DNA of 64,000 nucleotides, taken from positions 22,477 through 86,476 of the forward strand of contig JACZKE010000063.1 of assembly GCA_014860225.1 (NCBI GenBank). Direction: 5' to 3'. This DNA comes from Desulfuromonadales bacterium (GTDB lineage Bacteria > Desulfobacterota > Desulfuromonadia > Desulfuromonadales > BM103). The position numbers and the translations under genes were made by a program. A model generated the notes under the pieces. The model was not told the origin of the DNA. It worked only from the letters and a program-made list of their open reading frames with translations, and searched no databases. This document shows, piece after piece, positions 37,692-58,045 of this stretch. Each line of letters begins with the position of its first letter. The stretch's first letter is position 1.

Positions 37692-37770
37692 TCTAGGAGG
37701 TAAAAGAGAAGAACTTATGTTCTGTGGTTAATATCTTACCTATATTGTCAGGTATGTCAACAAAGAAAAT

Positions 37771-37883
37771 GAAAAAATAAAAGGCCACTCGGAATTGATC
37801 CTGGTGGCCATCGTTTTGTCGTCATAAATTGCTCTATCAATAACACGCCTGTTTTCGTCTCGGCAGTGGTGACAAATAAGAAA
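37771..37883 (+). repeat. CR-1 copy A
   Basis: A-rich core, hairpin GGCCACTCGGAA/TCCTGGTGGCC, TCGTTTTGTCGTCATAAATTGCTCTATCAATAACACGCCTGTTTTCGTCTCGGCAGTGGTGACAAATAAGAAA. Confidence 0.85.
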
Positions 37884-38255
37884 GGCCCTTCCATTTCTGT
37901 GGGGTCGTTATTATCACTTACTGTGATGTGTCAAAAAAACTTCCTGCGATATCACTACCCTCGGATGGTCCCCTCGCCTGACAATTTACGCGTGACCACA
38001 ACGCAGTATAACGGGGCTGAAAAGTTTCTCGCACGCATCCTGTGCGAAAAAAATATTATAAAACAGGGGGATAAGAAACAGGCACGCAGCTTGCTGTAGG
38101 TTCTCTGTGTGATATGTTTAAAATCGATTTGTTACCTTAATCGAAGCATCCGGGCACAAGGGCCTGCCAACAGCGGTGCACTGCATGCCATTGACAATCG
38201 CCCAACACCGATGACTGAAAAAACAATGACTATGAAGACTGAAAGGAGAATGACT

Positions 38256-39464
38256 ATGGTAACGGCCCTCTTGAGAATATCGCATATCGTGTTGCTTGGC
38301 CTGTTATTGGGGTTCTTTTTGTCGGCCTGCGGCGGAGGCGGCAGCTCCAGCTCCGGCGACGGCCAGGGGACCCTGTCAACCTCATTGACCGACGCTTCGA
38401 CGGATGAGTACCAGGCGGTCTATGTCACGGTCGCGCGCGTCGACGTTCACCTTGGTGGCGACGAGGACGAAGACGGCTCCTGGCAGACGGTCGCCGAACC
38501 CAACCAGACCTACAATCTGCTGGAGTTGGTCAACGGGGTCCGCGCAGAGCTCGGCCAGGCATCCCTGGCTGCGGGGCATTACACCCAGTTGCGCCTGATC
38601 ATCGGAGCGACCCCGGATGCAGGGCTGAACCTATTCAGTCAGGCCCACCCCTTTGCCAACTACGTCATCGATCTGGATGATAACGAGAGCCATGAACTGA
38701 AAGTGCCCAGCGGCTCCCAGACCGGCCTGAAAGTTGTCAACGGCTTCGACGTCAATGAGAACCAGACCACCGAACTGATCCTGGATTTTGATGCCATGCG
38801 TTCCGTGGTCAAGGCCGGCGCCAGCGGTCAGTACCTGCTCAAGCCGACGGTCAAGGTCCTTGAGACGGACGTCAATGCCATCGTTTCCGGAACCGTGACG
38901 AATACGCCGCCGGTCACTGACCCGCCAACGGACCCGGCTCCCCTAGCCGGGGCCTTCGTCACGGCCCAGACGGTTGACCCCGCCGCCGTCGACGCCAGGG
39001 ACCAGGTGGTCATCGAGGCCGGAACCCTGGCGGACGAAAACGGTGAATACACCCTGTTCCTGGCACCGGGCGACTACAACCTGGCGGCCGCGCAGGCTGG
39101 CTTCCTGCCGGGCTGCGCAGAGGTGATCCTGGCCGCGGACGACCTGGCCACGGTTGATTTCAGCCTGATCGCCGACTCTGCACTTCCGGGTGCAGTCGCC
39201 GGCACTGTTACGCTTACCGGTGCTCCGGTCGACCAGTATGCAACCCTTGATTTCCGTCAGGAAATGACCTGCGAAAATGCCCTGGCAGCAACCATGGTGA
39301 CGGTGAAATCGGTCAACGTCGTGGCTGGCGCATATTCCGTTGATCTCCCCCCGGGTGACTACCAGGTTGTCGTCTCGTCCTTCGGAATGACCACCCAGAC
39401 AGCAGATGTTACTGTCGTCACCGGGATCGTGACAGAGAATGTTGACTTTGACCTGATTCCTTAA
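38256..39464 (+). CDS. DUF4382-like lipoprotein with C-terminal carboxypeptidase-regulatory-like repeats
   Basis: Start at ATG 38256 after AGGAG; lipobox LSAC; ..[29 protein letters not shown].. DUF4382-type N-domain. Confidence 0.6.
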
Positions 39465-39508
39465 CCCTGGACGTTTTTGCCCACCACTCAGGGCAAGACC
39501 CTGTCGCA

Positions 39509-39545
39509 AAGGCCCGCCGTCGTCATGACCGCGGGCCTTTGCTTT
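39509..39545 (+). terminator. intrinsic terminator
   Basis: AAGGCCCGC-13 nt-GCGGGCCTT followed by TGCTTT. Confidence 0.55.
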
Positions 39546-39605
39546 ACTCGGCATTCAATTTAGGAAGAGTGGATAAATTAAGCTTAAATGTTTATTTTTT
39601 TTAGA

Positions 39606-39655
39606 CTTGCAAAATAAAAAGGCCACCTGATTTCTCATGTGACCGTTTCTCTTTT
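39606..39655 (+). repeat. partial CR-1 5' module (core + hairpin)
   Basis: CTTGCAAAATAAAAA + GGCCAC..GTGACC hairpin + TTTCTCTTTTTCTC. Confidence 0.5.
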
Positions 39656-39724
39656 TCTCAAAAACCATCTCGCATTGACGAGCAAATCAAATCAGGCCTG
39701 ACATCTTTGATCCATCCTATCAGT

Positions 39725-39793
39725 CCTGCAATATAAGAAAACCCTCGATCCAAAGATTGAGGGTTTTCGCGTTTTATATATGGTGCAAAATGA
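39725..39793 (+). repeat. CR-2 copy
   Basis: CCTGCAATATAAGAAAA + hairpin CCCTCGATC-CAAA-GATTGAGGG + TTTTCGCGTTTTATATATGGTGCAAAATGAG. Confidence 0.8.
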
Positions 39794-39801
39794 GAACAGC
39801 C

Positions 39802-40173
39802 TTACCATGTCTGAGTAGCAGAATCTATTGTGACGGCCAAGGTAGCACGCAGCCAACTAAATTTTGACTTCAACAAATCAAAGTCAGGACCTTCAGTTAT
39901 AAAAGCCGCTGTCCCTTTGATCAGGAAACCTGCACCTGGGCCATGTAAACCAGTCACTTTGCTACTACCTAATGTAATCAAAACATTATTGTTATAGGCG
40001 ATATTTGCTTCAGTTTGATGCATATATCCAGCGGGAATCAATAACCGACCATCTCCTGACACCCTAATGTAGCTGTTCCAAGTGTTGACCATGTGCGGCC
40101 CCTCTTTACCCACGGTCGCTATGGCAACAACGCCATCTTTTTTCATAATTTCTGCCAGCTTTTCTGGGAACAT
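39802..40173 (-). CDS. pyridoxamine 5'-phosphate oxidase-family (FMN-binding split-barrel) protein
   Basis: MFPEKLAEIMKKDGVVAIATVGKEGPHMVNTWNSY.. resembles PNPOx-like proteins; start at second ATG with GGAG SD. Confidence 0.55.
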   Translation of the reverse strand: MFPEKLAEIMKKDGVVAIATVGKEGPHMVNTWNSYIRVSGDGRLLIPAGYMHQTEANIAYNNNVLITLGSSKVTGLHGPGAGFLIKGTAAFITEGPDFDLLKSKFSWLRATLAVTIDSATQTW

Positions 40174-40258
40174 ATTTATCTCCATGTTTGTTTTTTTTCA
40201 TAAACTATCTACCATTCAAATACTGACAACATCGTCTAATTGAGCAGAATATAAAATA

Positions 40259-40384
40259 CCTCGCAATATACAAAATAGCCACCCGTTTCCAGGCGGCCAT
40301 CATTTTGTGGATTAAAGCCTCTTTTAAATATCTCTATCAATAACACGCCTGTTTTCGTCTCGGCAGTGGTGCATTTCAGTAAAA
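40259..40384 (+). repeat. CR-1 copy B
   Basis: CCTCGCAATATACAAAATA + diverged hairpin + ..ATCTCTATCAATAACACGCCTGTTTTCGTCTCGGCAGTGGTGCATTTCAGTAAAA; the 46-nt stretch CTCTATCAATAACACGCCTGTTTTCGTCTCGGCAGTGGTG is identical to copy A. Confidence 0.85.
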
Positions 40385-40446
40385 TCTCACCAAGAGGCCT
40401 GATCGGGGTTCCGTATTAAAGGAGTAATGGAATCAGGAATTATGAA

Positions 40447-41340
40447 TTAGTCCCTCTGGGATTGTAAACCCGGGGTTCGCACTTTCTGCACAGATTCATA
40501 AGTAGAAACGGAGAGTATAATTGTGCCACCGATCCAGACCGACACCCCAGGGATCTCGCCGACCACGTACCATGCCAGCACGGTGGCAATCCAAGGTTGC
40601 AGACATTGAATCAGCGCTACCGACTTGGCAGGTAATTGTTTCAGACTGAACGCCAGGAGGGTGTGGGCCGCTGCGGTACTGAGAATCCCAAGTAAAACTA
40701 TATTGACCCATGAAGCTGTTTCTAATGCCTGAACTCGGGGGAAATCAACAAACGGAGCCAGCATCAAGCAAATGGCAACAACCTGATGAAAGATGAGACT
40801 ATCACTTGTTTCCCCGTCGAATCGATATTTTTGCAATAGATTCCGCAAGGCGAATAGCAGCGCAGAAATCATCCCAAAGATTACTCCCAGAGTGATCGGT
40901 TTATGCAAGTCAGTCACATCAACGCCAACCATGATCGCTAATCCGGCCAGAACAAGCAACCCGGCGAGAACATCTCCGGTTTTAATCTTCGTTTGGGTGA
41001 AGAGAGGTTCGAGAAGAATGGTAATGACCGGGAAGGTGAACAAAGAGAGCATCCCGACTGCTACAGATGAGACTTGCATAGCATGAAAAAAGGTTATCCA
41101 GTGCAGGCCTAACAGCAGACCCAAGACATATACGCCGACGTAAGTTCGACTTCCTCCATTGAGCTTTAAACTTCGCCTCTGAAGGGCCGTGAAACAGGCA
41201 ATCCCTGCTGTTGCCACTACCGACCGTAATTGAATGATTGACATCGCGTCGAGGGGAATAATTTTCGCGAACAGCCCGGTAAGGGCCAAAAGAAAGATCG
41301 CCAAATATAGGCCTGGCAAGCCTAAACGGGGACATGACAT
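40447..41340 (-). CDS. DMT-superfamily (EamA) transporter
   Basis: 297 aa, about 10 TM, two EamA-like halves. Confidence 0.8.
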   Translation of the reverse strand: MSCPRLGLPGLYLAIFLLALTGLFAKIIPLDAMSIIQLRSVVATAGIACFTALQRRSLKLNGGSRTYVGVYVLGLLLGLHWITFFHAMQVSSVAVGMLSLFTFPVITILLEPLFTQTKIKTGDVLAGLLVLAGLAIMVGVDVTDLHKPITLGVIFGMISALLFALRNLLQKYRFDGETSDSLIFHQVVAICLMLAPFVDFPRVQALETASWVNIVLLGILSTAAAHTLLAFSLKQLPAKSVALIQCLQPWIATVLAWYVVGEIPGVSVWIGGTIILSVSTYESVQKVRTPGLQSQRD

Positions 41341-41370
41341 TTATGGAAAAACCTTCTGTCCAATCAATTA

Positions 41371-41443
41371 AGCATTACGAGAAAGCCCTCCTGGATCGCC
41401 AAGCGGGCTTTTGGTGTTCTATAGGTTGTGGATTATAGAAAAA
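41371..41443 (+). repeat. CR-2 copy (diverged)
   Basis: ATTACGAGAAA + GCCC..GGGC hairpin + TTTTGGTGTTCTATAGGTTGTGGATTATAGAAAAAC. Confidence 0.55.
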
Positions 41444-41527
41444 CCTGGAGCCGGCTGACCTGCCCCACCTTAAGAGTCCATCTCAAAATTTAGTTTAGCG
41501 CAATGCTTCCTGGCTCCCCAGTCGTTA

Positions 41528-42418
41528 TTATGACCTCTTTACCACCAAGTAAACACCAATAACTGTCATGATGATCGCTGTGATCGCGACTAGACTCAAT
41601 GATTCACCAAACAATAGCCAGGCTTCGATACTCGCGATGGGTGGCACGAGATAAAAATAACTTGCCACCTTAGCCGTCTCACCCTCTCGGATCATATACA
41701 TGAGCAAAAGAATAGCCGAGACTGATAATCCAAATACCAGCCATCCAAGGGCCAGTACCAAGCGAATATCCCACACCACTTCCTGGGCTTCAAATACCCA
41801 GGTCAAAATCGACATCAACATCGCAACACTGACATACTGCCAGATTGATCCGGACAGCAAATTCGTCCTTGAGCCAAAGCGCTTTTGATACAAGGTCCCG
41901 ACAGATATTCCTAACAAAGCTGCTATGGCAGCGAGTACTGAAGGCCAGTTCAGAACGATATCTTGATTCTGACTGGTGCTTAACAACACAGTTACCACCC
42001 CTCCGAGACCTAATCCAAGACCCAGCCACTGTCTAGGACGCAACCGCTCACCTAAAAAAAGCCATCCCAAACAAGCAGTGAGAACTGGCTGCGCTCCAAC
42101 AACTATCGCTGTAATCCCCGCAGGCATGCCCCACTTGATCGCGGCAAAAACACCTCCGAGGTAAGTACCATGCACCAAAAAACCAGTGACCATTTGTTGC
42201 CCAGCCTGCCTAGTTGATAACCGCTCAGCCCGGAACAATAAGCACAAAAGCATAAATACGGCGACGGTTAGAGTCATACGTATGAACAGTAAATAAAAAG
42301 GCTCGATAAAGGGTAAGGCATACTTGGCAGCAATAAAGCCGGTACTCCATAAGAAAACAAATAAAAATGGAATAAGGTTGATCAAAACCCGGCGTTTATC
42401 AGTCATCACAATTCCCAT
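41528..42418 (-). CDS. DMT-superfamily (EamA) transporter
   Basis: 296 aa, about 10 TM, two EamA-like halves. Confidence 0.8.
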   Translation of the reverse strand: MGIVMTDKRRVLINLIPFLFVFLWSTGFIAAKYALPFIEPFYLLFIRMTLTVAVFMLLCLLFRAERLSTRQAGQQMVTGFLVHGTYLGGVFAAIKWGMPAGITAIVVGAQPVLTACLGWLFLGERLRPRQWLGLGLGLGGVVTVLLSTSQNQDIVLNWPSVLAAIAALLGISVGTLYQKRFGSRTNLLSGSIWQYVSVAMLMSILTWVFEAQEVVWDIRLVLALGWLVFGLSVSAILLLMYMIREGETAKVASYFYLVPPIASIEAWLLFGESLSLVAITAIIMTVIGVYLVVKRS

Positions 42419-42630
42419 AGTCCACAGCCCATTATTCCGGCACAGTTCTTGTCTTCATTCAAGAGGAACGATAGCAGGTATATGGGGGTAGACGATTAAT
42501 TTTGATTGGCTTTGGTGAGTGTCAATGACGCTTCCATGCTGAACTTGTACATGGTTCATAAACGGTCGAAATCTTATCTCATTCAAAATAACAGGGCAAT
42601 GAAAACCAAATGATCAGCATTTCCATTTAT

Positions 42631-42691
42631 CCCGCAATCCAAGAATCTGCTCCCACCTTTAATCACTCCTGGCAGTCGTGACTTATAGGAG
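42631..42691 (+). repeat. R-core cluster (2 cores)
   Basis: CCCGCAATCCAAGAATC-11 nt-TTTAATCACTCCTGGCAGTCGTGACTTATAGGAG. Confidence 0.65.
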
Positions 42692-42995
42692 ATCGCTTCG
42701 TTAGGGTCATAGCTTCACCCCAAAATGGTTCAGAATGACTAGCAGCAGCAAATAACAAAAGACTGTCAGCACAACGGAAAGGCCAAGGCTAAGGCTAAGG
42801 TAGAAGTTGAGCCCTTGTACATAATTTTTCTTTTCAAAACTGAACTTTGGCAAGGTCAGCTAGAAATGTAAATTTTCAACATTTAAAGGTCTAATTGCCA
42901 GTGGTTTCTCCTCCTACGTTATTGTTGAAAAATTCTCATATTTGACTTATTATTTCACCTTTTTGCGGGCGAATCATTATTGGAGAGATATCATC

Positions 42996-44045: not shown

Positions 44046-44078
44046 GTCATATCGAATACATTGGAATATTACAGACAA

Positions 44079-44237
44079 GCCCCAGCCATCGCCGGTTGGG
44101 GCTTTTTCATTTCCGAAATTTTGCCTTCCCCTCCCCACCCCCAAATTTCCCCTCAGTACCGGATCTGGATCGGACTTTTCGACTGACATTTAACAAACCT
44201 ATGAGTTTCCAATAAATGCTACTGCATTGTTCTTCGG
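44079..44237 (+). repeat. CR-3 copy 1 (terminator hairpin + about 135-nt conserved tail)
   Basis: GCCCCAGCCATCGCCGGTTGGGGCTTTTTCATTTCC...CCCCTCCCCACCCCCAAATTT...ATAAATGCTACTGCATTGTT; matches the reverse complement of 61447-61587. Confidence 0.75.
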
Positions 44238-44273
44238 TGCTCAGGTTGAATGTAGTGCGAAATTCTTACTGAT

Positions 44274-44394
44274 CCTGACTCATAAGAAAATGGCCACCCT
44301 GAATCGTTCAAGGAGGCCATCATTTTGACACCTTAAATTGCTCTATCAATAACACACCAGTTTTCGTCTCGGCAGTCGTGACATTTAAGAAAAA
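44274..44394 (+). repeat. CR-1 copy C
   Basis: CCTGACTCATAAGAAAA + hairpin TGGCCACCCTGAA/TTCAAGGAGGCCA + TCATTTTGACACCTTAAATTGCTCTATCAATAACACACCAGTTTTCGTCTCGGCAGTCGTGACATTTAAGAAAAA. Confidence 0.85.
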
Positions 44395-44426
44395 CCACCT
44401 GCTTTCAATTGGCCATTTTTTGTGTA

Positions 44427-45680
44427 TTAAAGCTTATTCAAGCAGGCACTGGAAGGTTCGACCCATGCAGCGCGGTCGCGTCCTTCAGCTTTGGCCTTAT
44501 AGAGGCCCTCGTCAGCCCGTTGCAGCACGATGTCGAGGTTTTCCTCGCCTGAAAGAGACGTTGCAATTCCGAGACTGACCGTCACTGGTAGAGGTGTGTC
44601 ATTATACATGAATGGCCGGGTGCGAACAGCCTGGCGTACCCTCTCAGCAGCCACTACCGCACTCTCAAATGATTCATCTGGGAGGACAAGCAGAAACTCT
44701 TCTCCGCCATAGCGGCCTAACTGATCGTAATCACGCACTGTCTCTTGAATCCTCAGGGCCATGTCACGTAACACTTGGTCGCCGGCGAGATGGCCGTAAG
44801 TATCGTTGACTTTTTTGAAATGGTCTATATCGAGCATGATAAAACTCAATGAATAATCATTTTGTTGCTGACGGCGTCGATCAATCCGCGAGATTTCCTT
44901 GCGGGCCCGGTCGACGATTGCACCGCGGTTGTAAACGCCGGTCAGGGCGTCAATGGTAGCAAGAACGTGCAACTTATCCTGTGCTTCTCGCACGTGGGTG
45001 GAGGCGTTTTTTACGAAGAAGAAAGAGACTCCGAAGACTCCCACCAGGATGATGCCAAGAATAAAAACTGAATTAATAACTGTCGTGACTATCTCTTTGC
45101 GGTAACGAGTGACATCTGCGTAAATCTCAAAGGCGCCGACGACGGCATTGCCAATGCGAATCGGGATGTAACTTTCAACCACGTCGACATCCAGCATCTC
45201 CTCGTTTGCAAGATCGCGAAAGGCCTCCTTGTTTTCGTGGTGAGAATCGGGACTCCCCTGTAAGGCACGCTCCAGCCTGAGGTTCCCGGTATCTGTATCT
45301 CCGATGAGCGCGGCTTCCGAACTGAAAATGATCATCTTGTCGGCGTTGTATATTTTGATTTTGACTATTTCGAAGGCCTTGAGAAAACGCCGGAATCGAC
45401 GATCGAGAGTGTCCAAAGACATCGGATAAACGAAGAGTACAGGCTGTCCATCTGTCCCATCTGTGAAGAGCAGGTCTTCCTGTTCGACAAGCAGAACAGC
45501 GGCGATATGTGCCGCATCCTCCTCGGCGCTGCGCAGTACCTGGTCTGAGTAGACCCGGTAAATGCCATAGCCAGTTCCTGCAATAATGATAATTATTGAA
45601 AAGCAGGCCACCGCGACCAGTTTTTTCAGCAACAGTTGTACGTTGCCTTTCGGTGGGTTGGTATCAGCTTCAACTGACAT
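44427..45680 (-). CDS. diguanylate cyclase (GGDEF) with N-terminal membrane-anchored sensor domain
   Basis: 417 aa; GGEEF active site, RxxD-type region, two TM segments flanking a periplasmic domain. Confidence 0.85.
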   Translation of the reverse strand: MSVEADTNPPKGNVQLLLKKLVAVACFSIIIIIAGTGYGIYRVYSDQVLRSAEEDAAHIAAVLLVEQEDLLFTDGTDGQPVLFVYPMSLDTLDRRFRRFLKAFEIVKIKIYNADKMIIFSSEAALIGDTDTGNLRLERALQGSPDSHHENKEAFRDLANEEMLDVDVVESYIPIRIGNAVVGAFEIYADVTRYRKEIVTTVINSVFILGIILVGVFGVSFFFVKNASTHVREAQDKLHVLATIDALTGVYNRGAIVDRARKEISRIDRRRQQQNDYSLSFIMLDIDHFKKVNDTYGHLAGDQVLRDMALRIQETVRDYDQLGRYGGEEFLLVLPDESFESAVVAAERVRQAVRTRPFMYNDTPLPVTVSLGIATSLSGEENLDIVLQRADEGLYKAKAEGRDRAAWVEPSSACLNKL

Positions 45681-45851
45681 GCTGTCTCCTGAAATATACG
45701 ATACTGATCATCACCCCCCTTGCAACACATCAAAATATCAGAATTTCACAATGTAGTGCACTAGACCTATGTGGTCAAATGCTCTTTCCTAAATATATGC
45801 TCGAATTGATTTGATCGCTAGATGTTCAATGAAAAGCGAAGTTAGTGAAAA

Positions 45852-45965
45852 CCCTGACATACAAGAAAATGGCCACATGGAATTGATCCAGGTGGCCACC
45901 GTTTGTCGACTTAATTTGCTCTATCAATAACACGCCCGTTTTCGTCCTAGCAGTCGTGACTTTGG
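45852..45965 (+). repeat. CR-1 copy D
   Basis: CCCTGACATACAAGAAAA + TGGCCACATGGAATTGATCCAGGTGGCCA + CCGTTTGTCGACTTAATTTGCTCTATCAATAACACGCCCGTTTTCGTCCTAGCAGTCGTGAC. Confidence 0.85.
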
Positions 45966-46072
45966 CACCTCTGCCTAGCACCGGATCGAAGAAGAGTGCT
46001 TCATTACATTTGCTCCAGTTCTATTTAGGTTCCTTACATTGTGATTATTAGGACAACCATGCCAGGCGAACG

Positions 46073-46546
46073 CTACTTATCAGGTGGGGGCATGGACACC
46101 GTCATGCCATGACGCTGAAAGATGTCTGTCATCTTATCGCGGTCGGGTGGACCATCGACAGCAGCGTTGATTACTTCTGCTGACTCGCGGAAGTATGCAG
46201 GACCCATGATAGCAGGACTGATGACGACGAGTTGCTTTACATCTTTACTTCCGAAGTTGTCAAAGCGGTGTACCGCGCCTCGAGGTATGCATAGCGATTG
46301 GTCAGGACCAACTTCTATAGGCGTTCCGTTAACTGTCCAAGTTAGGACGCCTTCGATACCGTAAAGGACTTCCTCATAGGCGTCGTTTTTGTGGGCTGGC
46401 GCAGCCAGTTTCTGTCCAGCGGGAACGAAGAACTCGAACACTGATACACTTCCGTTGGAATCATTGCTCGTGAGAAGAAAATGGATTTGTAGCGGACCAA
46501 TCATGATTGTTTCATCAGATGGGTTAACCCTTGTCGCATGCTGCAT
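46073..46546 (-). CDS. cupin-domain protein
   Basis: 157 aa; ..APAHKNDAYEEVLYGIEG..(cupin motif 1) and ..LCIPRGAVHRFDN..(motif 2). Confidence 0.6.
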   Translation of the reverse strand: MQHATRVNPSDETIMIGPLQIHFLLTSNDSNGSVSVFEFFVPAGQKLAAPAHKNDAYEEVLYGIEGVLTWTVNGTPIEVGPDQSLCIPRGAVHRFDNFGSKDVKQLVVISPAIMGPAYFRESAEVINAAVDGPPDRDKMTDIFQRHGMTVSMPPPDK

Positions 46547-46799
46547 AATTTGCCCTTTATCTTTCTTAGGTGCAGGCTTTGTTCATAAACCCTATGACCA
46601 CATCGTCAGCGGCACCAGTTTGCGGACGTTGGTTATACGTGTTGTGATGGTGTCTGCATTAGAAGGCCTTGAGCCTTCCATAAAGGCACCCTTAAGTTAT
46701 TATACTCTTCATTTACTGGAACAGATAAAAGGGGGTCTTATTTATGATCCTATATTGTTTTGAGAGTGGAAATTAGCTGAAATGTGAGATTCCTACTGG

Positions 46800-46902
46800 C
46801 CCTGGCATATAAGAAAATGGTCTCTCGGAATTAATTCCAGGATTAATCTCGGTGGCCGTCGTTTTGTTGATTAATGAGCGCCTTAAATTAATCTATCAAT
46901 AA
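46800..46902 (+). repeat. CR-1 copy E (insertion in hairpin, 3'-truncated)
   Basis: CCCTGGCATATAAGAAAATGGTCTCTCGGAATT..CGGTGGCCGTCGTTTTGTTG..CTTAAATTAATCTATCAATAA, then similarity ends. Confidence 0.65.
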
Positions 46903-46992
46903 ACAATCGGCTAAGCGAACACCGCAGACAGGATGCATGTGGTAAACTTAAGACTATAAATAGCATTGGACTGGTCTGATGGCTAAGGAGGT

Positions 46993-47328
46993 ATGATGAA
47001 AGAATATCCTGGTAATTATGCTTGGCTCATGAGTGAGTTCGGGAAAGTTCTGGAGGCACATCAAAATTTTGGTAAGGAACTTCATCAGGCTGGCCCTCTT
47101 GATGAAAAAACCGCTCAACTTATCCAGCTTGCCGGAGCGGCAAGTGTTCGATCTGAAGGTGCGGTGCATTCTCATGTCAAACGGGCTCTGAAGGCTGGCG
47201 CAGAAACGGCTGAAATTTATCACAGCATAATTCTTCTGGCGAGCACAATTGGATTCCCTGCTGCTGCTGCCGCCTTATCTTGGGCCAGAGAAATCGTGGA
47301 ACCTCTAAAGGGGACAGACACCTTTTAA
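46993..47328 (+). CDS. carboxymuconolactone decarboxylase (AhpD-like) family protein lacking the CxxC pair
   Basis: 111 aa; ..LIQLAGAASVRSEGAVHSHVKRALKAGAE.. aligns with the CMD motif, but Ser and Ala sit where the Cys residues usually are. Confidence 0.65.
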   Translation: MMKEYPGNYAWLMSEFGKVLEAHQNFGKELHQAGPLDEKTAQLIQLAGAASVRSEGAVHSHVKRALKAGAETAEIYHSIILLASTIGFPAAAAALSWAREIVEPLKGTDTF

Positions 47329-47335
47329 GGACTAG

Positions 47336-47478
47336 ATTGTCCACCCGGTGTTGGTCCAGGTAGCCATAGTCTTGCGGATTAAAGAACTTCTTAAATATCT
47401 TCATAAATATGAAGCCTATTTTCTTCTCAGAAGTCGTGAGTTATAGGAAAAGCACCCAATCCGAAGATTGAGGGTTTA
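47336..47478 (+). repeat. CR-1/CR-2 hybrid copy G
   Basis: Diverged CR-1 (TGTCCACCCGG..CCAGGTAGCCATAGTCTTGCGG..TTCTTAAATATCTTCATAAAT..TTTTCTTCTCAGAAGTCGTGAGTTATAGGAAAAG) running directly into a CR-2-type hairpin ACCCAATC-CGAA-GATTGAGGGT. Confidence 0.65.
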
Positions 47479-47507
47479 CATGCACATGAGGCGGCTCAAT
47501 TCTTTCC

Positions 47508-48971: not shown

Positions 48972-49110
48972 GGCCTCCTTACAAGTGTTAAGGAAGTCTT
49001 TGTTGTTTTTAGTTTTACTCCCATAAGAAATCCGAGTTTCGTATAAAAAGGACAGATTTAATCATAGCACCTATTCAAGACTCTTCTAGTTATCAATGGT
49101 ACAGTAAACC

Positions 49111-49270
49111 CTCTCTCAATAAAAAGAAAAGGCCACCCGGAGAGGATCCTAGGCGGCCATAATTTGTGGTCAATGAACGTCTTAAATTGCTCTATCAATA
49201 ATACGCCATTTTTCGTCTCACCAGTGGTGACAAATAAGAAACGGCCCTTGGAGCCAATCCCAAAGGGCCG
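49111..49270 (+). repeat. CR-1 copy F with 3' hairpin
   Basis: CTCTCTCAATAAAAAGAAAA + GGCCACCCGG..CTAGGCGGCC + ..CTTAAATTGCTCTATCAATAATACGCCATTTTTCGTCTCACCAGTGGTGACAAATAAGAAA + hairpin CGGCCCTTGG..CCAAAGGGCCG. Confidence 0.85.
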
Positions 49271-49354
49271 CGTCAGCAGGGCCTGTTTTAAAAAACACAG
49301 GTTAATAAACACTAGCCTGTCCAGACATTTTTTCAAGAATTAAATATGGTGATC

Positions 49355-49435
49355 ATCAAGAAGCCACTTTTCGCCTCACAAATCGTGCAATACAAGAAAA
49401 TTCCTCACGATTTTATAATCGAAGGCCCCGTGATT
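49355..49435 (+). repeat. CR-1 3' half only (copy F2)
   Basis: CACTTTTCGCCTCACAAATCGTGCAATACAAGAAAA + TCACG..CGTGA hairpin + TTTTTC. Confidence 0.6.
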
Positions 49436-49474
49436 TTTCTTTAACATAACGAAACATTGGGTTGCTCACTAACA

Positions 49475-49705
49475 TTAGCCGTCTAGCGAAAACAACTCAT
49501 CTTGAACGAGTGAAAACTCCTCGTGCTGCCGTTGTTCTTCCCCATGGTATGGCCCTCCTTGGCCGCGCAATTTGTCTTGGCCAAGGACAACCCATCCATC
49601 TGAGCGTTTAAACAACATTACCTGCTGTATATCTATCAAAAACTGCAAGTCGTCTTTATTCACTAATTCTTCTTTACCACCACTAAGTACAACAGGGATA
49701 AGCAT
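49475..49705 (-). CDS. small protein resembling the Geobacter GSU3473 family
   Basis: Start at MLIPVVLSGGKEELVNKDDLQFLIDIQQVMLFKRSDGWVVLGQDKLRG.. with GGGAGG SD; family assignment from memory only. Confidence 0.4.
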   Translation of the reverse strand: MLIPVVLSGGKEELVNKDDLQFLIDIQQVMLFKRSDGWVVLGQDKLRGQGGPYHGEEQRQHEEFSLVQDELFSLDG

Positions 49706-50015
49706 ATAATGCACCTCCCGTCTAAACTCCTTAACTAAAACCACGCTAGCACTTAGTGAGGTTCTGTCAAGCTTATACAGAGTCATGAGCAGACGAAATA
49801 AACTAAAAGATGAACAGAATTAGACGAAAGGTCCTTGCATATTTTAAACTTATGATGCGCCTTAAGGTGGGTAGATATTCCCATGAATTCTGACATTTAA
49901 GAACGCACCACCAACGCTCGTCACAGTAGCACACAGATTACTCACAACTTTCTTACAAGTACTCCTGCATTGATTTGAAACCTTCAGATTGGTCGAAATT
50001 CAAGATTCTTGGATA

Positions 50016-50091
50016 CTCTGCAATGTAAGAAAGCCCCCTATCCGAAGATTGAGAGTTTGCGTGTTTTATAAATGGTGATTAATAGCAATAG
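50016..50091 (+). repeat. CR-2 copy (decayed stem)
   Basis: CTCTGCAATGTAAGAAAGCCCCCTATCCGAAGATTGAGAGTTTGCGTGTTTTATAAATGGTGATTAATAGCAATAG. Confidence 0.75.
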
Positions 50092-50124
50092 TTTTTCAAC
50101 AAGCGGTCCGAATTGAGCGAATTG

Positions 50125-50565: not shown

Positions 50566-50836
50566 TAATTAGATACTCCTATTTCTGTATAACATGTGAT
50601 TCTATATGCGCTAACGCTAGACATTGCTCGGCAGGTAGAATGTTAAGGTTTGTGATTAAAGTTCTTATGTTCAAAGTTCTTCCAAGATGAAACTTAAGAA
50701 ATATTGAAGAACAAAATCCGAGTTAAGAGTCACAGACCATAAACACAAAAAGCCCCCGATTCTTACGGATGGCCTGTAGTCATCTTTCGTCGTACCCCCT
50801 TCATTATCAGATACCCACACAAATAAGATGTTTCCA

Positions 50837-51006
50837 ATCTACAGCAATCGAAGTGCAAGGTCAAAGAGATGTGTTTCTTATTTATGCTATTGCATTGTAT
50901 GGAGGGTGTGAATATACCTGGGACAATATTTCTTGCTGCCCCTGCAATGTAAGAAAGCCCCCGATCCGAAGATTGAGGGCTCGTTTTATAATTGGTGATT
51001 TATAAG
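50837..51006 (+). repeat. CR-X copy 2 (3' part is a CR-2 unit)
   Basis: ATCTACAGCAATCGAAGTGCAAGGTCAAAGAG...CTGCTGCCCCTGCAATGTAAGAAA + GCCCCCGATCCGAAGATTGAGGGC + TCGTTTTATAATTGGTGATTTATAAG. Confidence 0.75.
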
Positions 51007-51097
51007 ACACTTAACGTCAAAGTGAAATACCGCTAACCAGGGGACGCGGTACCGATTCAAGGCAGGCTATCGAGTCAGAGGAGTTGCCTCGACTGGC

Positions 51098-52429: not shown

Positions 52430-52820
52430 TTCTGACCCCTCTCACTATTTTTTTCAGGGCGAGTTGCAGTGACCAAAACTGCTCAAACTTTCCGCTAATA
52501 AAATGAGTTGCCCCGTATCTTGCTGCAGGGCAGCAAAAACAATTTGACACTCACAACGATAACAGTTAGAGGGGAAATTGCGAATAACCCCCCATCCAAA
52601 AATCAGAAAGGGAAGGCGCTGGTCGAGAAGTAAAGACTGGACGAAAAGCCGTTGGAGGGTTGATCATGAGACAATTCCTTGGGTTGCCAGGGAGACAAAA
52701 TCCGCCTTTCACTGAGGCAGCCTGAATTATTTTCACATTCAGGTCTCAAAGGAATGTGTCTCAAAAGTTATGTCGGTAAATTGATTAGATAAACATTTAA
52801 TGGACAGGGTAATCTTAAAA

Positions 52821-52932
52821 TCCTGCAATCCAGGAAACAGACGGATGCCTTTATTCCGTCCTCGCAGTGGTGCAATGCAGGAATCGAGCAATCGGCTTTA
52901 ATCCGTCCTATCAGCCGTGATCTTTAATAATT
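52821..52932 (+). repeat. tandem R-core mini-array (3 cores separated by 12-nt spacers)
   Basis: TCCTGCAATCCAGGAAA | CAGACGGATGCC | TTTATTCCGTCCTCGCAGTGGTGCAATGCAGGAAT | CGAGCAATCGGC | TTTAATCCGTCCTATCAGCCGTGATCTTTAATAAT. Confidence 0.7.
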
Positions 52933-52955
52933 GATCTTTACGCCTAGCAAAATAC

Positions 52956-53695
52956 TCAAACTCCAAATACTTTGAGAAACAAATCTGTCACACCTTCTAA
53001 CCCCCGCTTGGGGAAACCACTCTTCTTTCCCGAGTATGGCATTTCTTGGTATATGTAAAAGCGTTTTTCTCCAGAGAAATTATCGTTCAACAATTCACGC
53101 TTGCCGAGTAAGTAGGCAAGGAAAGTTTCACTACGTCGTGCGGAGTAAGCAAGGTTCGTACTGAAGCCTATAGTAGCTGCTTGGTTAATGGATCGCCCGC
53201 TATCTGCTTGTTCAATCTTAATCCCATGGCAACCCTGAACAATCAGTTGTGCCGGTCCGTGGAACGCAAGGTAACGCAATTGCAGGGTTAGCCATGCATG
53301 CAGGCTGTTCAGTTGCCAGTGGGACGTTATGTGGATAGGTGAGGCTTTGTGTTGAACAATGTTAACAAGATTGTGTGGTTGCATCACAAGCGCAACCCCC
53401 TGAGGGATGGACAAGATTCCGATCTCACTGAGAGACTCTTTGGTTGCAGAGATGACGGACATTTGGGGCAGTCAATGTCATTCTGCCGGAATCGTCTTAT
53501 GAGAGAGCTTTTCCTAAACAGCCGATGCAGGCTAAGCAGGCTGTGGTTGATTGGCGTGACGACACTGGCCGGCTTTGGTCCGTCCCGGTCGCTCTGCCGA
53601 AGGAAAACGGCATTGCAAATACCGGACAGCCCTTGAGTCTGGTATATAAAATCCTGCCGGCGGGTCAAGTAACTGTTAGACTGCAACCGTCTCAA
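52956..53695 (-). pseudogene. unknown gene, apparently split by a frameshift near 53384-53462
   Basis: 168-aa ORF (52956-53462) and 103-aa ORF (53384-53695) on the same strand overlap by 79 nt in different frames; family not recognised. Confidence 0.3.
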
Positions 53696-53762
53696 TAATC
53701 ACCACTTATAACGCACGAAAGCCCTCATCTACGGATCGGGGGCTTTTCTTACATTGCAGGAT
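53687..53762 (-). repeat. CR-2 copy (reverse orientation)
   Basis: Reverse complement: TCCTGCAATGTAAGAAAAGCCCCCGATCCGTAGATGAGGGCTTTCGTGCGTTATAAGTGGTGATTATTGAGACGG. Confidence 0.8.
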
Positions 53763-54187
53763 CAACAAAACTTTCGCATTTCGGCCAATTGGAACAACTC
53801 GAAGCTCTGCGAGAGGATAAATAGTAAATTGGATGACTGGATTCGAGCCAGCGATTCCCTGCTCCCGAAGCAGAAGTGATCCGCTCGAATGAGCACTCTT
53901 TCCTCAGTGCGCTCATTTACCAGATGGGACGTATCCCAAAGGCGTTCACGTTTGACGTCAACGAACCACTTCCTCAGGTGTAGTAATCGGCACTTGGTCA
54001 GATAGTGTCTGGTTATCAGGGACTAGAAGCCGGCCTTGAATCAATTCCCCATTATATTTAACTACAGAATGCCTTCGATATACGGCATTTGTTGACATAT
54101 TGATAAATCGGAGCTTACTGTAAATGCCAAAATTAATTGCGAATTTTAATTGGCGAGTCAAAACCTACAAATTAGGCCATCTTTTCT

Positions 54188-56368
54188 ATGCGCGGGGCGG
54201 CAGTCATGGATAACCCAGAAACTACAACAATAGAGAGCAAGGAACTGCTTAAAAAGGCTACTGCTGCTGCTGAAGCGTTACTTAGAAAAGCCGCTGACGC
54301 TTCGGAAACGTTGCTTAATAAAGCTACTGAGACCTCTGAAGCTTTACGATGTGCCGCTGCTGAGACTGAGGAAGGGGTACATACCAACTCGATAGAGGCT
54401 GCTGATATGCTTCTCCTAGCTGCATCTAGGGCTTCAAAGGCTTTATATGCTGATTCGGCTGAGGCCGCTCAGCTCTTACTCTGTACAGCTGCAGAGGTTG
54501 CGGATACTGCTGAAGCTGATGAAAATAATAAGGCGTCGATCGCTGAAGCTGTTGAGAGTGCTAGAGAGTTACTCTATACAGCTGCTGATAATGCTAAAAC
54601 CTTGATCGCTGAAGCTGTTAAGACGGCTGTCAAATTACTTGGTGATACAGCCGTGGAAACTGAGCGGCTACGTCGCAACGCCGTTAATTGTTATTTGGTG
54701 GAATTGCGCAACAAGGCAGAAGCGGCACTGATTGAGATCACCTCTGAAGCAGAGAGCGCAATGATGGCGATGGGTTCAAAAAGCTTAGTGCATGAGTTAC
54801 GGGTTCAAAAGTTAGAACTGGAGATGCAAAACCAGGAATTGCAGGATTCGTCCGCGGAGGTGGAAAAGTTACAGGAATATTTCGCCGATTTTTATGATTT
54901 TTCCCCGACAGGGTTTGTTAGCATTGACCTGAATGGCGCAATTAACCATACCAATATCACTTGTGCAAAACTTCTGGGCAGAGAGCGTTCCCAGTTGATA
55001 GGAGCCATCTTTGCTTCTTTTGTGACCATGGTTGACCGGCCCGTTTTCAACAACTTTCTACAGCAACTCTTTGAGGGCGGAACTAGGCAAACCTGCATAT
55101 TGTCATTGTATGACAGAGAGCAGACTCGTATATTTGTGCAGATGGTGGGAACACTTTCTCCTGACAAACAATCATGTCGAGCAGTGCTGATAGACCTCAC
55201 CGAGCAACGGCAAAGGGAAGAACAACTCCGCCAATCACAGAAAATGGAGGCGATAGGGCAGCTCGCTGGTGGCGTCGCCCATGATTTTAACAACATCCTC
55301 TCGGTTATCATAGGGTATGCCAGCTTGATGCAGATGGATAAACAGCTTGATGACCCCCAGCAAGAAAGGGTCAAGGCGATTGCATCCTCCGCCGAGAAGG
55401 CAGCTCAGCTGACCAAGGGGTTGCTGGCTTTCAGCCGCAAACAGGCCATGGTTCTCAGAAACTCCAACCTTAACGATATTGTACTGCACGTGGAGAATTT
55501 TCTTGCCAGGATTATCGGTGATGACATCAACCTCACCTCAATTCGCCATGCGCAACAATTGCCGGTCAATGTTGACTCTGGGCAGATCGAACAGGTTTTG
55601 ATCAACCTGGCCACGAATGCCCGTGATGCCATGCAAAATTGCGGGTCGCTGACCATAGAAGCAGGGATGCAGGAGATTGGTGCATCATTTGTTGGAAAGC
55701 ATGGGTATGGCGAACCTGGCCGCTACGCCCATTTAAAGGTATCCGATACAGGCAGCGGGATGGATAAGGATACCTGCAACAAGATATTCGATCCATTCTT
55801 TACTACCAAGGAGGTTGGCAAGGGCACCGGTCTTGGCTTGGCCATAGCTTACGGAATTGTAAAGCAGCACAACGGCTTTATCGAAGTATACAGTGAACTG
55901 GGTCAAGGCACGACTTTCAGGATTTATCTGCCTCTTATTGAATTAGAACAGCCCGTACGAGAAGTGAATGTAGCACTGCAGCCACCACAAGGAGGTACCG
56001 AGACTATCCTTGTTGCAGAAGATAATGCAGACGTGCGCAAACTCGTGGTAACCGTCCTGACAAAATTCGGATACGACGTAATCCAAGCCATTGATGGACA
56101 AGAAGCTGTCGATATGTTTGCTGCACATCGTGATCGGATACGCTTGATCCTAATGGACATGATTATGCCGAGAAAGAACGGGAGGGATGCTTATGAAGAG
56201 ATCATCCGAACCCACTCGGTAGGCGTAAAGGTATTGTACTTGTCAGGATACACAGCTGACTTTATCCAAAACCGCGGGATATCTGAAGAAGGGATTGAAC
56301 TATTGATGAAGCCGGTACAACCGTTGGAATTGTTACGTAAGATTAGGGAGATGCTGGACTCAAAGTAA
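54188..56368 (+). CDS. hybrid sensor histidine kinase/response regulator (Ala-rich helical N-region, PAS, HisKA, HATPase_c, REC)
   Basis: 726 aa; H-box ..[11 protein letters not shown].., N/G boxes ..[10 protein letters not shown].., ..DTGSGMD.., ..GKGTGLGLA..; C-terminal receiver ..[16 protein letters not shown].. Confidence 0.85.
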
Positions 56369-56510
56369 ATTTTCTTATTTATCACGATTGGCAGGACGAA
56401 AAAGTGCGTATTGTTGATAGAGATATATAGAAATATCGTGAAAGCACAAATTTATGGCCACCTGGATTGAACCTAGGTGGCCATTACGACGTTGACGTAA
56501 TTTTACTTAT
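56369..56510 (-). repeat. CR-1 copy H (reverse orientation)
   Basis: Reverse complement: ..CAGAATAAGTAAAAT..TGGCCACCTAGGTTCAATCCAGGTGGCCATAAATTTGTGC..ATATCTCTATCAACAATACGCACTTTTTCGTCCTGCCAATCGTGATAAATAAGAAAA. Confidence 0.8.
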
Positions 56511-56830
56511 TCTGATGTTTCGATCAAATGAGTGCTAGGGTCTCTGAGCTGCTTTTGGCTTCTTAATTGATTTTGGTTGCCTTGCATCTGTTGATATTCC
56601 GACCGACTTGTAGTAATCCCATTACCCTGACGATACTGGTATTGGTTTTGTTGTTTGTATTGGTACTGATGCGTATTCCCTGCTTGCGACATTCCTGAGC
56701 CAAGGCCACTACCGTTACAGAAACCTCCTCCTTTGCCTCCACCGCCCCTTGCTAATGCAAGTTCTGCCCCTGTGACAGTCATCAAGAATGTTGCGATAAT
56801 TCCAATGGTGATAATTTTTAGGGTCCTCAT
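56507..56830 (-). CDS. small secreted Gly/Gln/Tyr-rich low-complexity protein
   Basis: 107 aa; signal peptide MRTLKIITIGIIATFLMTVTGAELALA; GGGGKGGG then QYQYKQQNQYQYRQ repeats; strong AAGGAGG SD. Confidence 0.5.
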   Translation of the reverse strand: MRTLKIITIGIIATFLMTVTGAELALARGGGGKGGGFCNGSGLGSGMSQAGNTHQYQYKQQNQYQYRQGNGITTSRSEYQQMQGNQNQLRSQKQLRDPSTHLIETSE

Positions 56831-56904
56831 TTGTTCCTCCTTTAATAGCTTTTTTTGGGGGCCATCTGATTACTTTGCAGCCTTAGACGAAACAAATATT
56901 AAAG

Positions 56905-57022
56905 GGTTTACATTTTTCTTACCGACTGAAATTCTGCCGCGTTACTAAATTTCACGACTGCCAGGACGGATTAATTGCGGGATCAAATTCTTAGATTGCA
57001 GGATTTGTAGGAAAAACTGAAT
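56905..57022 (-). repeat. R-core cluster (about 4 cores, reverse orientation)
   Basis: Reverse complement: CCTGCAATCTAAGAAT-11 nt-ATTAATCCGTCCTGGCAGTCGTGAAATTTAGTAAC...CAGTCGGTAAGAAAAATG. Confidence 0.65.
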
Positions 57023-57097
57023 AATTGCAGTAAAACAGCGGGAAAACATATGGAATAACAAAGAAGACTGTTTTGCGCTCCCTTTTTCGCCTAAGAT

Positions 57098-57769
57098 TTA
57101 TCGCCCACCACCAGGAGGACGCGGCATTGTGCCCGTTACGCCGGCCGTCAAGGTAAAGCGCATGGCCTCCTCCATGCTCATATCCAGGGGGCGGACCGCA
57201 CTGCGTGGCATCAGGACCGCATAACCCCCAATCATATAACTCAGGGGTAGATAAACCAGGATGCTATCTTTTTCTCGAAAATCTTCAGGCATGTGTTCCG
57301 AAATTGCCTGAGTGACAAATCCGATCACTTGCATGCCGGTATCCCCGATAGAGACGGCCACCACCTGCTTGAATTCTTTTTTTCGCGTCGGTGAGAAATA
57401 GTCAAAAAAATCGCGTATTGCTCGATACACGGATTTAATCACGGGTGTGTGGTAAAAGAGTTGCTCCCCTTTGGCAAACAACCGTTGCACCACGTAGGCT
57501 TGCATCAACAGCCCCACCACGAACACCACGACCAAACCGGTGATCAATCCCATACCGGGCCAGTACAGGTGTTCGGGAAGCATCAATCGAATCACGTTGC
57601 CCAATACGGACTCTGCCGACACCGCCAGCCAGTAGATGAGGTACAGTGTTAGCAATACCGGCAGGATAGTAACCAACCCAGTAAGAATGTTTCGGCTTAT
57701 AAATCTCACTATCTGGACGTCCTTCGTTTGAGGGGTTATTGAACGCTGCTTGCTTTCCCTGTTCAGCAA
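57098..57769 (-). CDS. DUF502 domain membrane protein
   Basis: 223 aa (TTG start, uncertain); ..ILTGLVTILPVLLTLYLIYWL.. DUF502 N-terminal signature. Confidence 0.65.
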   Translation of the reverse strand: MLNRESKQRSITPQTKDVQIVRFISRNILTGLVTILPVLLTLYLIYWLAVSAESVLGNVIRLMLPEHLYWPGMGLITGLVVVFVVGLLMQAYVVQRLFAKGEQLFYHTPVIKSVYRAIRDFFDYFSPTRKKEFKQVVAVSIGDTGMQVIGFVTQAISEHMPEDFREKDSILVYLPLSYMIGGYAVLMPRSAVRPLDMSMEEAMRFTLTAGVTGTMPRPPGGGR

Positions 57770-57831
57770 GAGAAATGACGAACACTCATCGTAAATAATT
57801 ATAGGTGTCTTTTTCTACCCATCAATCAGAC

Positions 57832-57983
57832 ACTCAAAACCTTCGGTCAGAAGATCGGGGGGTTTTCTAATTTATCACTACTGATGAGACGAAAACGGGC
57901 ATGTTATTGATAGAGACATTTAAGACGACAAAATGATGGCCACCTGGATCAAATCTGAGTGTCCACTTTCTTATGAGTCAGTA
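57832..57983 (-). repeat. CR-1 copy I (reverse orientation) with 3' CCCCCCGATC-type element
   Basis: Reverse complement: CTGACTCATAAGAAAGTGGACACTCAGATTTGATCCAGGTGGCCATCATTTTGTCGTCTTAAATGTCTCTATCAATAACATGCCCGTTTTCGTCTCATCAGTAGTGATAAATTAGAAAACCCCCCGATC.. Confidence 0.85.
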
Positions 57984-58045
57984 CATTAAGGACTTGGGTG
58001 ATAAAGACGACATGTGTCACCCATTTTTGCCTAGCTCCTGAGAGA

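Follow-up and report, generated by a model that had tools for sequence, protein, structure and literature searches.

We analysed a 64,000-nt stretch of a genome assembly of a Desulfuromonadales bacterium (assembly GCA_014860225.1, contig JACZKE010000063.1, positions 22,477 to 86,476 of the forward strand), hereafter called the window, and describe CR-1, a composite repeat found between its genes. CR-1 is an undescribed element of ~125 bases, which lies between genes in uncultured marine Desulfuromonadales. The first 36 kb of the window carry housekeeping genes (acetate kinase, cytochromes and an NrfA-like protein) and zero CR-1 copies. At ~36000-37000 the G+C content falls from 53-56% to 42-48%, the cumulative GC skew flips its sign and a repeat-rich region starts. 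The whole window was scanned, with filters off, by a covariance model (R1) of 124 positions including a 13-bp hairpin, for which 25 copies were used as input. The R1 scan yielded eight full copies, six on the minus strand and two on the plus strand in the model orientation, together with one truncated and one diverged copy, ten in total (Table 1), and no convincing copy in positions 1-36000. All nine copies listed in an earlier note on this DNA were recovered where that note had placed them, and the tenth, the diverged copy G', was added by the scan. A 36-nt pattern of the conserved box of the repeat matched the window five times at three or fewer mismatches against zero matches expected. Unbiased repeat discovery retrieved CR-1 as families D1-D3, D5 and D8, of which D3, the GGCCACC hairpin, was listed only within CR-1 copies, for which reason the idea of GGCCACC as a DNA-uptake sequence was set aside. 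Family D1 also bears on a string that the earlier note had quoted as identical between copies A and B; it is indeed shared exactly, but its length is 40 nt, not 46 nt.

Table 1. CR-1 copies in the window and the parts of copy C, with strands given in the orientation of the R1 model.
Feature	Coordinates	Strand	Remarks
CR-1 copy A	37759..37883	-	full length, model 1-124, 130.1 bits; between two plus-strand genes and therefore anti-oriented to its neighbours
CR-1 copy B	40254..40383	-	full length, long-linker variant; starts 64 nt past the stop of the EamA gene 40447-41340(-)
CR-1 copy C	44267..44392	-	full length; starts 35 nt past the stop of the GGDEF gene 44427-45680(-)
Copy C, T-rich core TTTCTTAAATGTCAC	44378..44392	-	model 1-15; not co-inherited with the box
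Copy C, unit boundary TCAC|GAC	between 44378 and 44377		
Copy C, near-invariant box SACTGCCGAGACGAAAACNGGCGTGTTATTGATAGAG..ATTTAAG	44329..44377	-	includes the possible small stem GAGACG/CGTGTT
Copy C, hairpin hp1	44290..44320	-	13 bp, covarying; terminator-like because TTTTCTTATGAGTCAGG comes next on the minus strand
CR-1 copy D	45847..45970	-	full length; starts 103 nt past the stop of the cupin gene 46073-46546(-)
CR-1 copy E	46794..46902	-	truncated, model 41-124; end of the box, linker and hairpin kept
CR-1 copy F	47315..47450	-	'type 2' box (GAGAAG..GGCTTC); after the decarboxylase gene's own terminator
CR-1 copy G	49107..49241	-	long-linker variant, located 136 nt upstream from the start of the decarboxylase gene
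CR-1 copy G'	49291..49399	-	diverged, 33.3 bits; absent from the earlier note's list; starts 76 nt past the stop of the open reading frame 49475-49786(-)
CR-1 copy H	56371..56505	+	full length; starts 3 nt past the stop of the histidine-kinase gene 54188-56368(+)
CR-1 copy I	57864..57988	+	full length; anti-oriented to both minus-strand flanking genes

CR-1 also occurs outside this genome. The box pattern was found in 22 stretches among the GTDB species representatives, all of them in deltaproteobacterial metagenome-assembled genomes (MAGs) and mostly in Desulfuromonadales, the remaining matches being in bins labelled Geobacteraceae and Smithellaceae, and in 64 contigs of the JGI/ENA metagenomes. 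We examined 604 kb of DNA fetched from MAGs of Desulfuromonadales and other deltaproteobacteria and from sediment metagenomes (loci designated by L and a number), in which R1 or nhmmer detected 179 CR-1 matches, 129 of them full length. Many of the copies form co-oriented arrays with a spacing of 0.3-3 kb, for instance seven copies in L051, five each in L073 and L086, and four in L058. The layout of the repeat given in the earlier note is accurate in the alignments, and holds for the other genomes as well. No Rfam 15 family matched CR-1 at either gathering or permissive thresholds (E up to 5), in agreement with that note, which did not recognise the repeat as a described RNA family. No BLAST match to a CR-1 copy was obtained from PLSDB plasmids or INPHARED phages, the box pattern had no match in IMG/VR, and the CR-1 sequence string was not found in the literature searched. 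Within the window, Rfam detected only a tRNA and a group II intron, both away from CR-1. The latter (RF00029, domain V/VI, 47.9 bits) lies at 63756-63827 on the minus strand at the window edge, with the rest of the intron beyond it, and no link to CR-1 was found.

The anatomy of CR-1 is described here from multi-copy alignments on the strand opposite to that of the earlier note. The 5' part is a moderately conserved T-rich 'core' (TTTCTTATnnG), followed by the joint TCAC|SACT (the bar marks the unit edge), which is nearly invariant with A and C at 98-99%. Next come a sequence-constrained box of 50-60 nt (..GCCGAGACGAAAACNGGCGTGTTATTGATAGAG-nnATTTAAGACG), an optional insertion of 11-13 nt, which gives rise to short- and long-linker forms, ACAAAATGA, the hairpin hp1 itself (ATGGCCACCTGGA-loop-TCCGGGTGGCCAT) and a T-rich tail, which often reads TTTATTATTTGTCAGG. 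RNAalifold predicted hp1 and one 6-bp stem, and nothing else. The latter stem, GAGACG/CGUGUU within the box, is tentative, and has one covarying pair, C-G in 88 copies and A-U in 15. A stretch of ~40 nt in the box is conserved, unpaired and A/U-rich. Another stem across the box, CACGCC/GGCAGTG, was rejected by alignment inspection and RNAalifold, as it is lost in variant copies, and the consensus of the integration host factor (IHF) fits in its WATCAA half only. Two coding readings, namely a reverse-strand open reading frame (ORF) ending at the TAA in ATTTAA and an ORF beginning at ATGATGGCC within the hairpin, were rejected as well: the variable box positions are contiguous without three-base spacing, the linker and loop change in length by 1-13 nt and not by multiples of three, and the changes in the hairpin are compensatory at the nucleotide level.

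The hairpin hp1 was confirmed to be under selection to fold, as the earlier note had supposed from a compensatory change in copy C (GAA/TTC in place of GGA/TCC), which is real. Across 126 copies, 88% of the cells pair and double changes occur at 11 of the 13 pairs. The compensatory cells amount to 83 against 27.4 expected, a level reached in none of 500 shuffles; as much of this signal comes from two hairpin subfamilies, the independent events are fewer than the cell count. Sliding the partner columns, which served as a control, abolished the pairing. In ~20 copies (e.g., L031:2689-2824, L040:1000-1124 and L092:36-161), hp1 belongs to a subfamily that reads GGCCACCAGGGTTCGATCCTTGGTGGCC. The 12-13 bp stem of this subfamily with its T-loop-like GTTCGAT cap resembles a minihelix of the tRNA acceptor and T-arm, which may be a coincidence.

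The earlier note envisaged, on its own strand, a transcript with the constant box at the 5' end and a variable stem at the 3' end, whereas the evidence favours the opposite strand. Counting the cells whose sole pairing is G·U gives 177 on the opposite strand and 60 on the strand of that note, the count being higher on the former at 10 of the 13 pairs and lower at two. RNAfold energies are lower on the opposite strand in most copies, and the 10 nt after hp1 on that strand contain 5.7 T. Because of the G·U excess, the folding energies and the T-tract after the hairpin, the working strand of CR-1 is probably the reverse of that assumed before. The position relative to genes points in the same direction. 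In the opposite-strand orientation, 99 unique copies have a neighbour no more than 600 nt away; upstream of 68 of them (69%) lies the end of a co-oriented gene, and upstream of 31 a divergent start (P = 2.6e-4). The distance from the stop codon to CR-1 has a median of 74 nt and is usually ~40-140 nt, and the repeat often sits directly behind the upstream gene's own terminator. Downstream of CR-1, a co-oriented gene start was found in 58 of 95 copies, with an interquartile range of the distance of 85-281 nt. The neighbours include ordinary chromosomal genes, such as those for glutamine synthetase, aldehyde dehydrogenase and ABC-F, which is usual for repeats resembling repetitive extragenic palindromes (REPs).

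In its sequence features, CR-1 shows what is expected of an intrinsic terminator, i.e., a GC-rich stem-loop and then a U-tract, downstream of a co-oriented gene. A strong hairpin unrelated to hp1 stands directly before ~31% of the copies, its T-tract being the CR-1 'core'. The earlier note counted this second, variable hairpin as a part of the element; it lies outside the co-inherited unit, is unlinked to the box, and is the upstream gene's own terminator. No -35 signal was found, as shuffled sequence gave -35 scores equal to the best ones here, and the TATAAG-like hexamer 7 nt before the unit edge is weak and shows little conservation, its last base often being G. Promoters of the sigma-70 or sigma-54 type were rejected, since they are not conserved among the copies.

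A mutual-information analysis of 125 unique copies showed that CR-1 is a composite of freely reassorting modules (flank/core, box, linker, hairpin and tail). The variable columns of the box (positions 0 to +24) are tightly linked to each other (z = 10-37) and define subtypes such as CACTGCCGAGACG..GGCGTG and GACTTCTGAGAAG..GGCTTC. Columns -20 to -5, covering the core and the flank, are unlinked to the box, which places the start of the inherited unit within TCAC|S; the flank shows a consensus of its own. The columns of the hairpin are linked to each other, but neither to the tail from +3 onward nor, unexpectedly, to the box subtype. At least 25 copies consist of the box only, and ~8 of the hairpin only. 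The box evolves far more slowly than the hairpin; for instance, copies A and C differ by ~2% in the former and by ~26% in the latter. The reassortment of the modules argues for frequent recombination or conversion among the copies, or for their assembly from separate elements.

The edges of CR-1 coincide with synteny breaks between close relatives. We fetched and compared the contigs carrying close homologues of the decarboxylase gene that lies next to copies F and G. The neighbours of this gene differ in every contig, and the sole shared DNA is one module (window 49239-47436) composed of the G-type element, 136 nt, the decarboxylase gene, its terminator and TTTTCCTATAACTCAC, which has an identity of 97.8% to L029 and of ~93% to L023-25, L057 and L067. 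The module always ends at ..TCAC| with a different sequence beyond. Past ..CTCAC|, the window continues with copy F, L023-25 with a different CR-1 copy, and L057 and L067 with a short spacer and another terminator. L029 lacks copy F exactly from ..CTCAC| onward, and carries there non-element DNA leading to a tRNA-Sec gene. Upstream of the decarboxylase gene, the sequence after the hairpin is common to the contigs, whereas the box-linker-hairpin module differs among them, such that L029, L023-25 and L057/L067 hold different box and hairpin modules at the position of copy G. The more distant decarboxylase homologues in L026, L027 and L030 have no CR-1 beside the gene, and in L027 the decarboxylase terminator is followed by a different conserved tail. 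A second module, which carries an EamA gene (window 41428-42664), matches L065 and ends at ..TTTTTCTATAATCCAC|. In a strict all-against-all BLAST of the loci, breakpoints fell at model positions 9-17 in eight contig pairs that are 99.3-99.9% identical, and fewer breakpoints were found inside or after the hairpin. The arrangement in L023, L024 and L025 is the only one supported by three independent assemblies.

We also noticed tRNA-like fragments without the 5' acceptor strand in L087 (8185-8243, plus strand) and in L057 (~1990-2070). The fragment in L087 covers positions 8-63 of the Rfam tRNA model and has a CGG anticodon loop. Both fragments adjoin a CR-1 copy at its 5' flank in the opposite orientation, and ARAGORN calls no tRNA there; they may represent att-type tRNA remnants at an island border.

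Searches for the hallmarks of mobile elements were negative. CR-1 has no terminal inverted repeats, its only consistent inverted repeat being the internal hairpin, and the 5' flank of a given copy does not recur as its 3' flank, leaving no sign of target duplication. Pfam scans of the window ORFs detected no recombinase or transposase, and no recurrent family of either kind emerged when 408 ORFs from 95 loci were clustered; the recurrent ORFs encode histidine kinases, radical SAM, GlgC-like, aldehyde dehydrogenase, glutamine synthetase and GNAT proteins. More specifically, no tyrosine recombinase was found by Pfam in the window ORFs or the recurrent locus ORFs, no RAYT/Y1 transposase among the recurrent ORFs in windows of up to 16 kb around the matches, and no parent insertion sequence with CR-1 ends in the 604 kb examined. 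The hairpin ATGGCCACC..GGTGGCCAT is without the GTAG of REP palindromes, and CR-1 copies are single and directional. Sequence inspection and RNAalifold gave no R'' (RYYYAAC) and R' (GTTRRRY) boxes on one long hairpin, as in attC sites. With respect to miniature IS200/IS605 elements, the weak 5' stem is unrelated to hp1, and no Y1 transposase is among the recurrent ORFs. We further considered the inverted repeat of Tn3-type elements (shared ACGAAAAC), the oriIS of ISCR/IS91 (TTCCTATA), the dif/Xer site and the type I-F CRISPR repeat. The likeness presumably amounts to ~8 nt or a partial arm in each case, and all four were rejected, as the rest of the site misfits.

We favour, at a probability of roughly 0.5, the interpretation that CR-1 is a new modular intergenic repeat resembling REPs and bacterial interspersed mosaic elements (BIMEs), which is transcribed, carries a terminator and also forms a recombination joint. 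CR-1 would most likely be transcribed as the tail of the upstream gene's mRNA, because it sits ~40-140 nt behind a co-oriented stop codon, and hp1 may act as the main or back-up intrinsic terminator and as a protector of the 3' end. The repeat may have been spread and homogenised by recombination among the copies or by a trans-acting factor. As many near-identical copies lie between genes, these copies may be the joints for swapping, inverting or replacing gene modules between close relatives. Transcription and termination are predicted here from sequence features, and we infer the mode of spread and the mechanism behind the synteny breaks.

Several points weigh against this interpretation. 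No co-oriented gene is present upstream of 31% of the copies, and part of the G·U asymmetry could stem from a strand bias in C-to-T mutation instead of selection. Mis-joining of the assemblies at the repeat could account for some of the breakpoints between contigs, and breakpoints at the repeat edges are also expected from homologous recombination anywhere within near-identical copies. A search for filled and empty orthologous sites by chaining high-scoring segment pairs gave no clean CR-1 pair. Moreover, a role as a terminator accounts neither for the much stronger conservation of the unstructured box compared with the hairpin, nor for the near-identity of the box across bacterial families and the invariant unit edge TCAC|SACT. 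With the conservation of the box and the invariant 8-mer edge left unexplained, two rival explanations, invoking a small RNA and a cassette recombinase, stay alive.

The first of these, which we regard as unlikely, is that CR-1 represents a family of regulatory small RNAs, either borne by 3' untranslated regions or standing alone. Such an RNA would extend from approximately SACU through the unpaired box, which would be a seed or protein-binding region, to the hairpin terminator, and would arise either when the upstream mRNA is processed or from a weak promoter. An Hfq-type architecture can be recognised in CR-1, as a possible 5' stem, the ~40-nt unpaired A/U-rich stretch and the covarying hairpin with a U-tract follow one another. 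The slow evolution of the box relative to the fast evolution of the hairpin is expected for a sequence-specific seed, and the co-orientation with the upstream genes and the weak TATAAG-like hexamer also suit this idea. Nevertheless, the -10-like hexamer is poorly conserved and accompanied by no -35 signal, so that no promoter of its own is apparent. The density reaches one copy per 1-2 kb behind unrelated genes, fragments with only the box or only the hairpin are frequent, and the two parts assort independently. In addition, there is neither an Rfam match nor a candidate target.

The second rival, in our assessment quite unlikely, regards CR-1 as the crossover site or end of an unrecognised gene-cassette system, integron-like or of the HUH-type single-strand kind. 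A trans-acting recombinase would cut at TCAC|SACT beside the folded hairpin, without IntI or attC features, and the modules moved would consist of box, hairpin, gene, terminator and TTTCTTATnnGTCAC. This explanation gains from the invariant 8-mer at the unit edge, where contigs of 97.8-99.9% identity lose their homology and continue into unrelated DNA (the window and L029, L036/L087, L057/L067, L066/L068 and L034/L073), and from the EamA gene module, which likewise ends there. The flank, having its own consensus unlinked to the box, looks like a target or partner site. The copies form co-oriented arrays with ~1-3 kb spacing, a given gene is flanked by other neighbours in each relative, and the 5'-truncated tRNA-like fragments in L087 and L057 abut the first element. 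The strand asymmetry of the hairpin is as compatible with a site in single-strand DNA as with an RNA. Nevertheless, no recombinase or transposase was found in the window, and none is recurrent in 540 kb of loci. The edge breakpoints can equally result from homologous recombination within the copies or from assembly mis-joins, and further breakpoints lie within the hairpin or beyond it. CR-1 shows none of the attC hallmarks, core housekeeping genes are among the neighbours, and the hairpins beside the joint are unrelated in sequence and missing in ~69% of the copies.

Two further readings are largely excluded. It is very improbable that the box is a portable promoter or operator, using TTGACA-17-AATAAC, which the earlier note saw inside the linker, or TTGATA-16-CAAAAT on the other strand. 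Copy C does match on both strands (TTGATA-16-CAAAAT at 44349..44322 of the minus strand), and the co-oriented gene starts downstream would fit a promoter. However, only copy C contains TTGACA, with TTTTGTCGTC standing in the others, and the opposite strand is likewise without a -35 signal; the optional linker insertion alters the spacing, transcription from TTGATA/CAAAAT would begin inside the hairpin, and the distance to the downstream start is variable. A classical MITE (miniature inverted-repeat transposable element), i.e., an insertion sequence shortened by deletion and mobilised by a DDE transposase, which the earlier note had brought up as a possible outcome, is scarcely credible. Although CR-1 is short, non-coding, multi-copy and intergenic with degenerate and truncated copies, as a MITE would be, it is strongly directional and has neither terminal inverted repeats nor target duplication, and the 604 kb examined yielded no parent insertion sequence bearing these ends.

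Other repeats were noticed in the same DNA. A second repeat family is present at 39714-39771, 47449-47482, 50006-50063 and 50930-50987 on the strand of the earlier note, and at 53731-53788 and 58846-58903 in the opposite orientation. Its members have a conserved terminator hairpin, CCCTCRATC-CRAA-GATTGAGGG, followed on one strand by TTTCTTACATTGCAGG and a tail of ~40 nt, ..AAGAATTTCGCATTTCGGCCAATCTG. The same tail also follows hp1 in about half of the CR-1 copies and the decarboxylase terminator in L027, and a 'core' TTTCTTAYnnnGCAGG/GTCAGG is common to this family and CR-1. A 52-nt repeat with 85% identity between its copies at 37493-37544 and 50817-50868 has TTGACC-17-TAGATT, a conserved promoter-like motif, on the minus strand. 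On that strand it lies ~60 nt downstream of the second-family tail, with which it may constitute a shared terminator-promoter intergenic module. The histidine-kinase gene before copy H contains a 33-nt periodic direct repeat in its N-terminal region (54514-54639), encoding an alanine- and glutamate-rich repeat. The sole match in the search for filled and empty sites was a 91-nt insertion polymorphism (L084:1394-1484 versus L074:3027, in contigs ~86% identical). This element is unrelated to CR-1 and has inverted-repeat ends, GGGGAGTTAATTCTCCGCAGCTTGCTGCG ... CCCCGCTGCTTGCGGCGGGGTAG, representing a separate MITE-like family in the same organisms.

Short intergenic repeats shape transcription ends and genome plasticity in bacteria, and have been described almost only in cultured model bacteria. 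CR-1 is distinctive in being conserved in many uncultured sediment Desulfuromonadales, in having independently assorting modules, and in sitting where gene order differs between strains 93-99.9% identical. It offers a handle on the rearrangement of accessory-gene neighbourhoods in an environmentally important group and, if a dedicated enzyme exists, would be a pointer to a new recombination system. The model of the box and the hairpin can be used now to annotate genomes and to flag hot spots of assembly breaks in MAGs.

Some features of CR-1 recall mobile systems. The ends of IS200/IS605 (HUH) elements and palindrome-associated transposable elements (PATEs) likewise lack terminal inverted repeats and target duplication, are strand-specific and carry a hairpin in sub-terminal position; their insertion takes place 3' of a fixed short motif, the counterpart of which in CR-1 would be TCAC|. 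However, IS200/IS605 elements need similar hairpins at both ends, whereas the possible 5' stem and hp1 of CR-1 are unrelated in sequence, and no TnpA or TnpB gene was seen. The attC sites of integrons, e.g., the Vibrio cholerae repeats (VCRs), are species-typical repeats of 60-140 nt that form co-oriented arrays with ~1-kb spacing between unrelated genes, fold in a strand-specific manner and are joined at a fixed conserved short sequence. In contrast to attC, CR-1 is not one long hairpin, no IntI or attI was seen, and the arrays include housekeeping genes and are often mixed in orientation.

In kind, we place CR-1 among the bacterial intergenic repeats. Many conserved intergenic families, termed 'multicopy nucleotide sequences', are present in Geobacter and Pelobacter, and for some of them a nature as IHF/HU sites or short RNAs has been suggested (Aklujkar et al. 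2009, PMC2700814; 2012, PMC3543383). These families occur in the same bacterial order as CR-1; each was described in single genomes, and the box strings of CR-1 are absent from the text supplementary alignments of the two papers. The pneumococcal BOX, enterobacterial repetitive intergenic consensus (ERIC) and Neisseria Correia elements share with CR-1 a length of ~100-150 nt; they are co-transcribed elements from which terminators or processing sites can arise, and BOX is modular (boxA-B-C). ERIC and Correia elements differ in having long imperfect palindromes or terminal inverted repeats, Correia also TA duplications, and the independent assortment of modules sets CR-1 apart from all three. 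REP/BIME sequences of enterobacteria and pseudomonads are species-specific, whereas CR-1 is conserved across several bacterial families and has a near-invariant, non-palindromic box of ~50 nt and a single hairpin, without inverted doublets (REPINs). Nevertheless, REPs and BIMEs, including the IHF-binding RIP/BIME-1 composites, resemble CR-1 in being abundant, non-coding and intergenic, usually within 3' untranslated regions, and in being transcribed with the upstream gene, as CR-1 would be. They are likewise imperfect GC-rich palindromes with compensatory changes, composites of hairpins and conserved linker motifs, and known hot spots of rearrangement.

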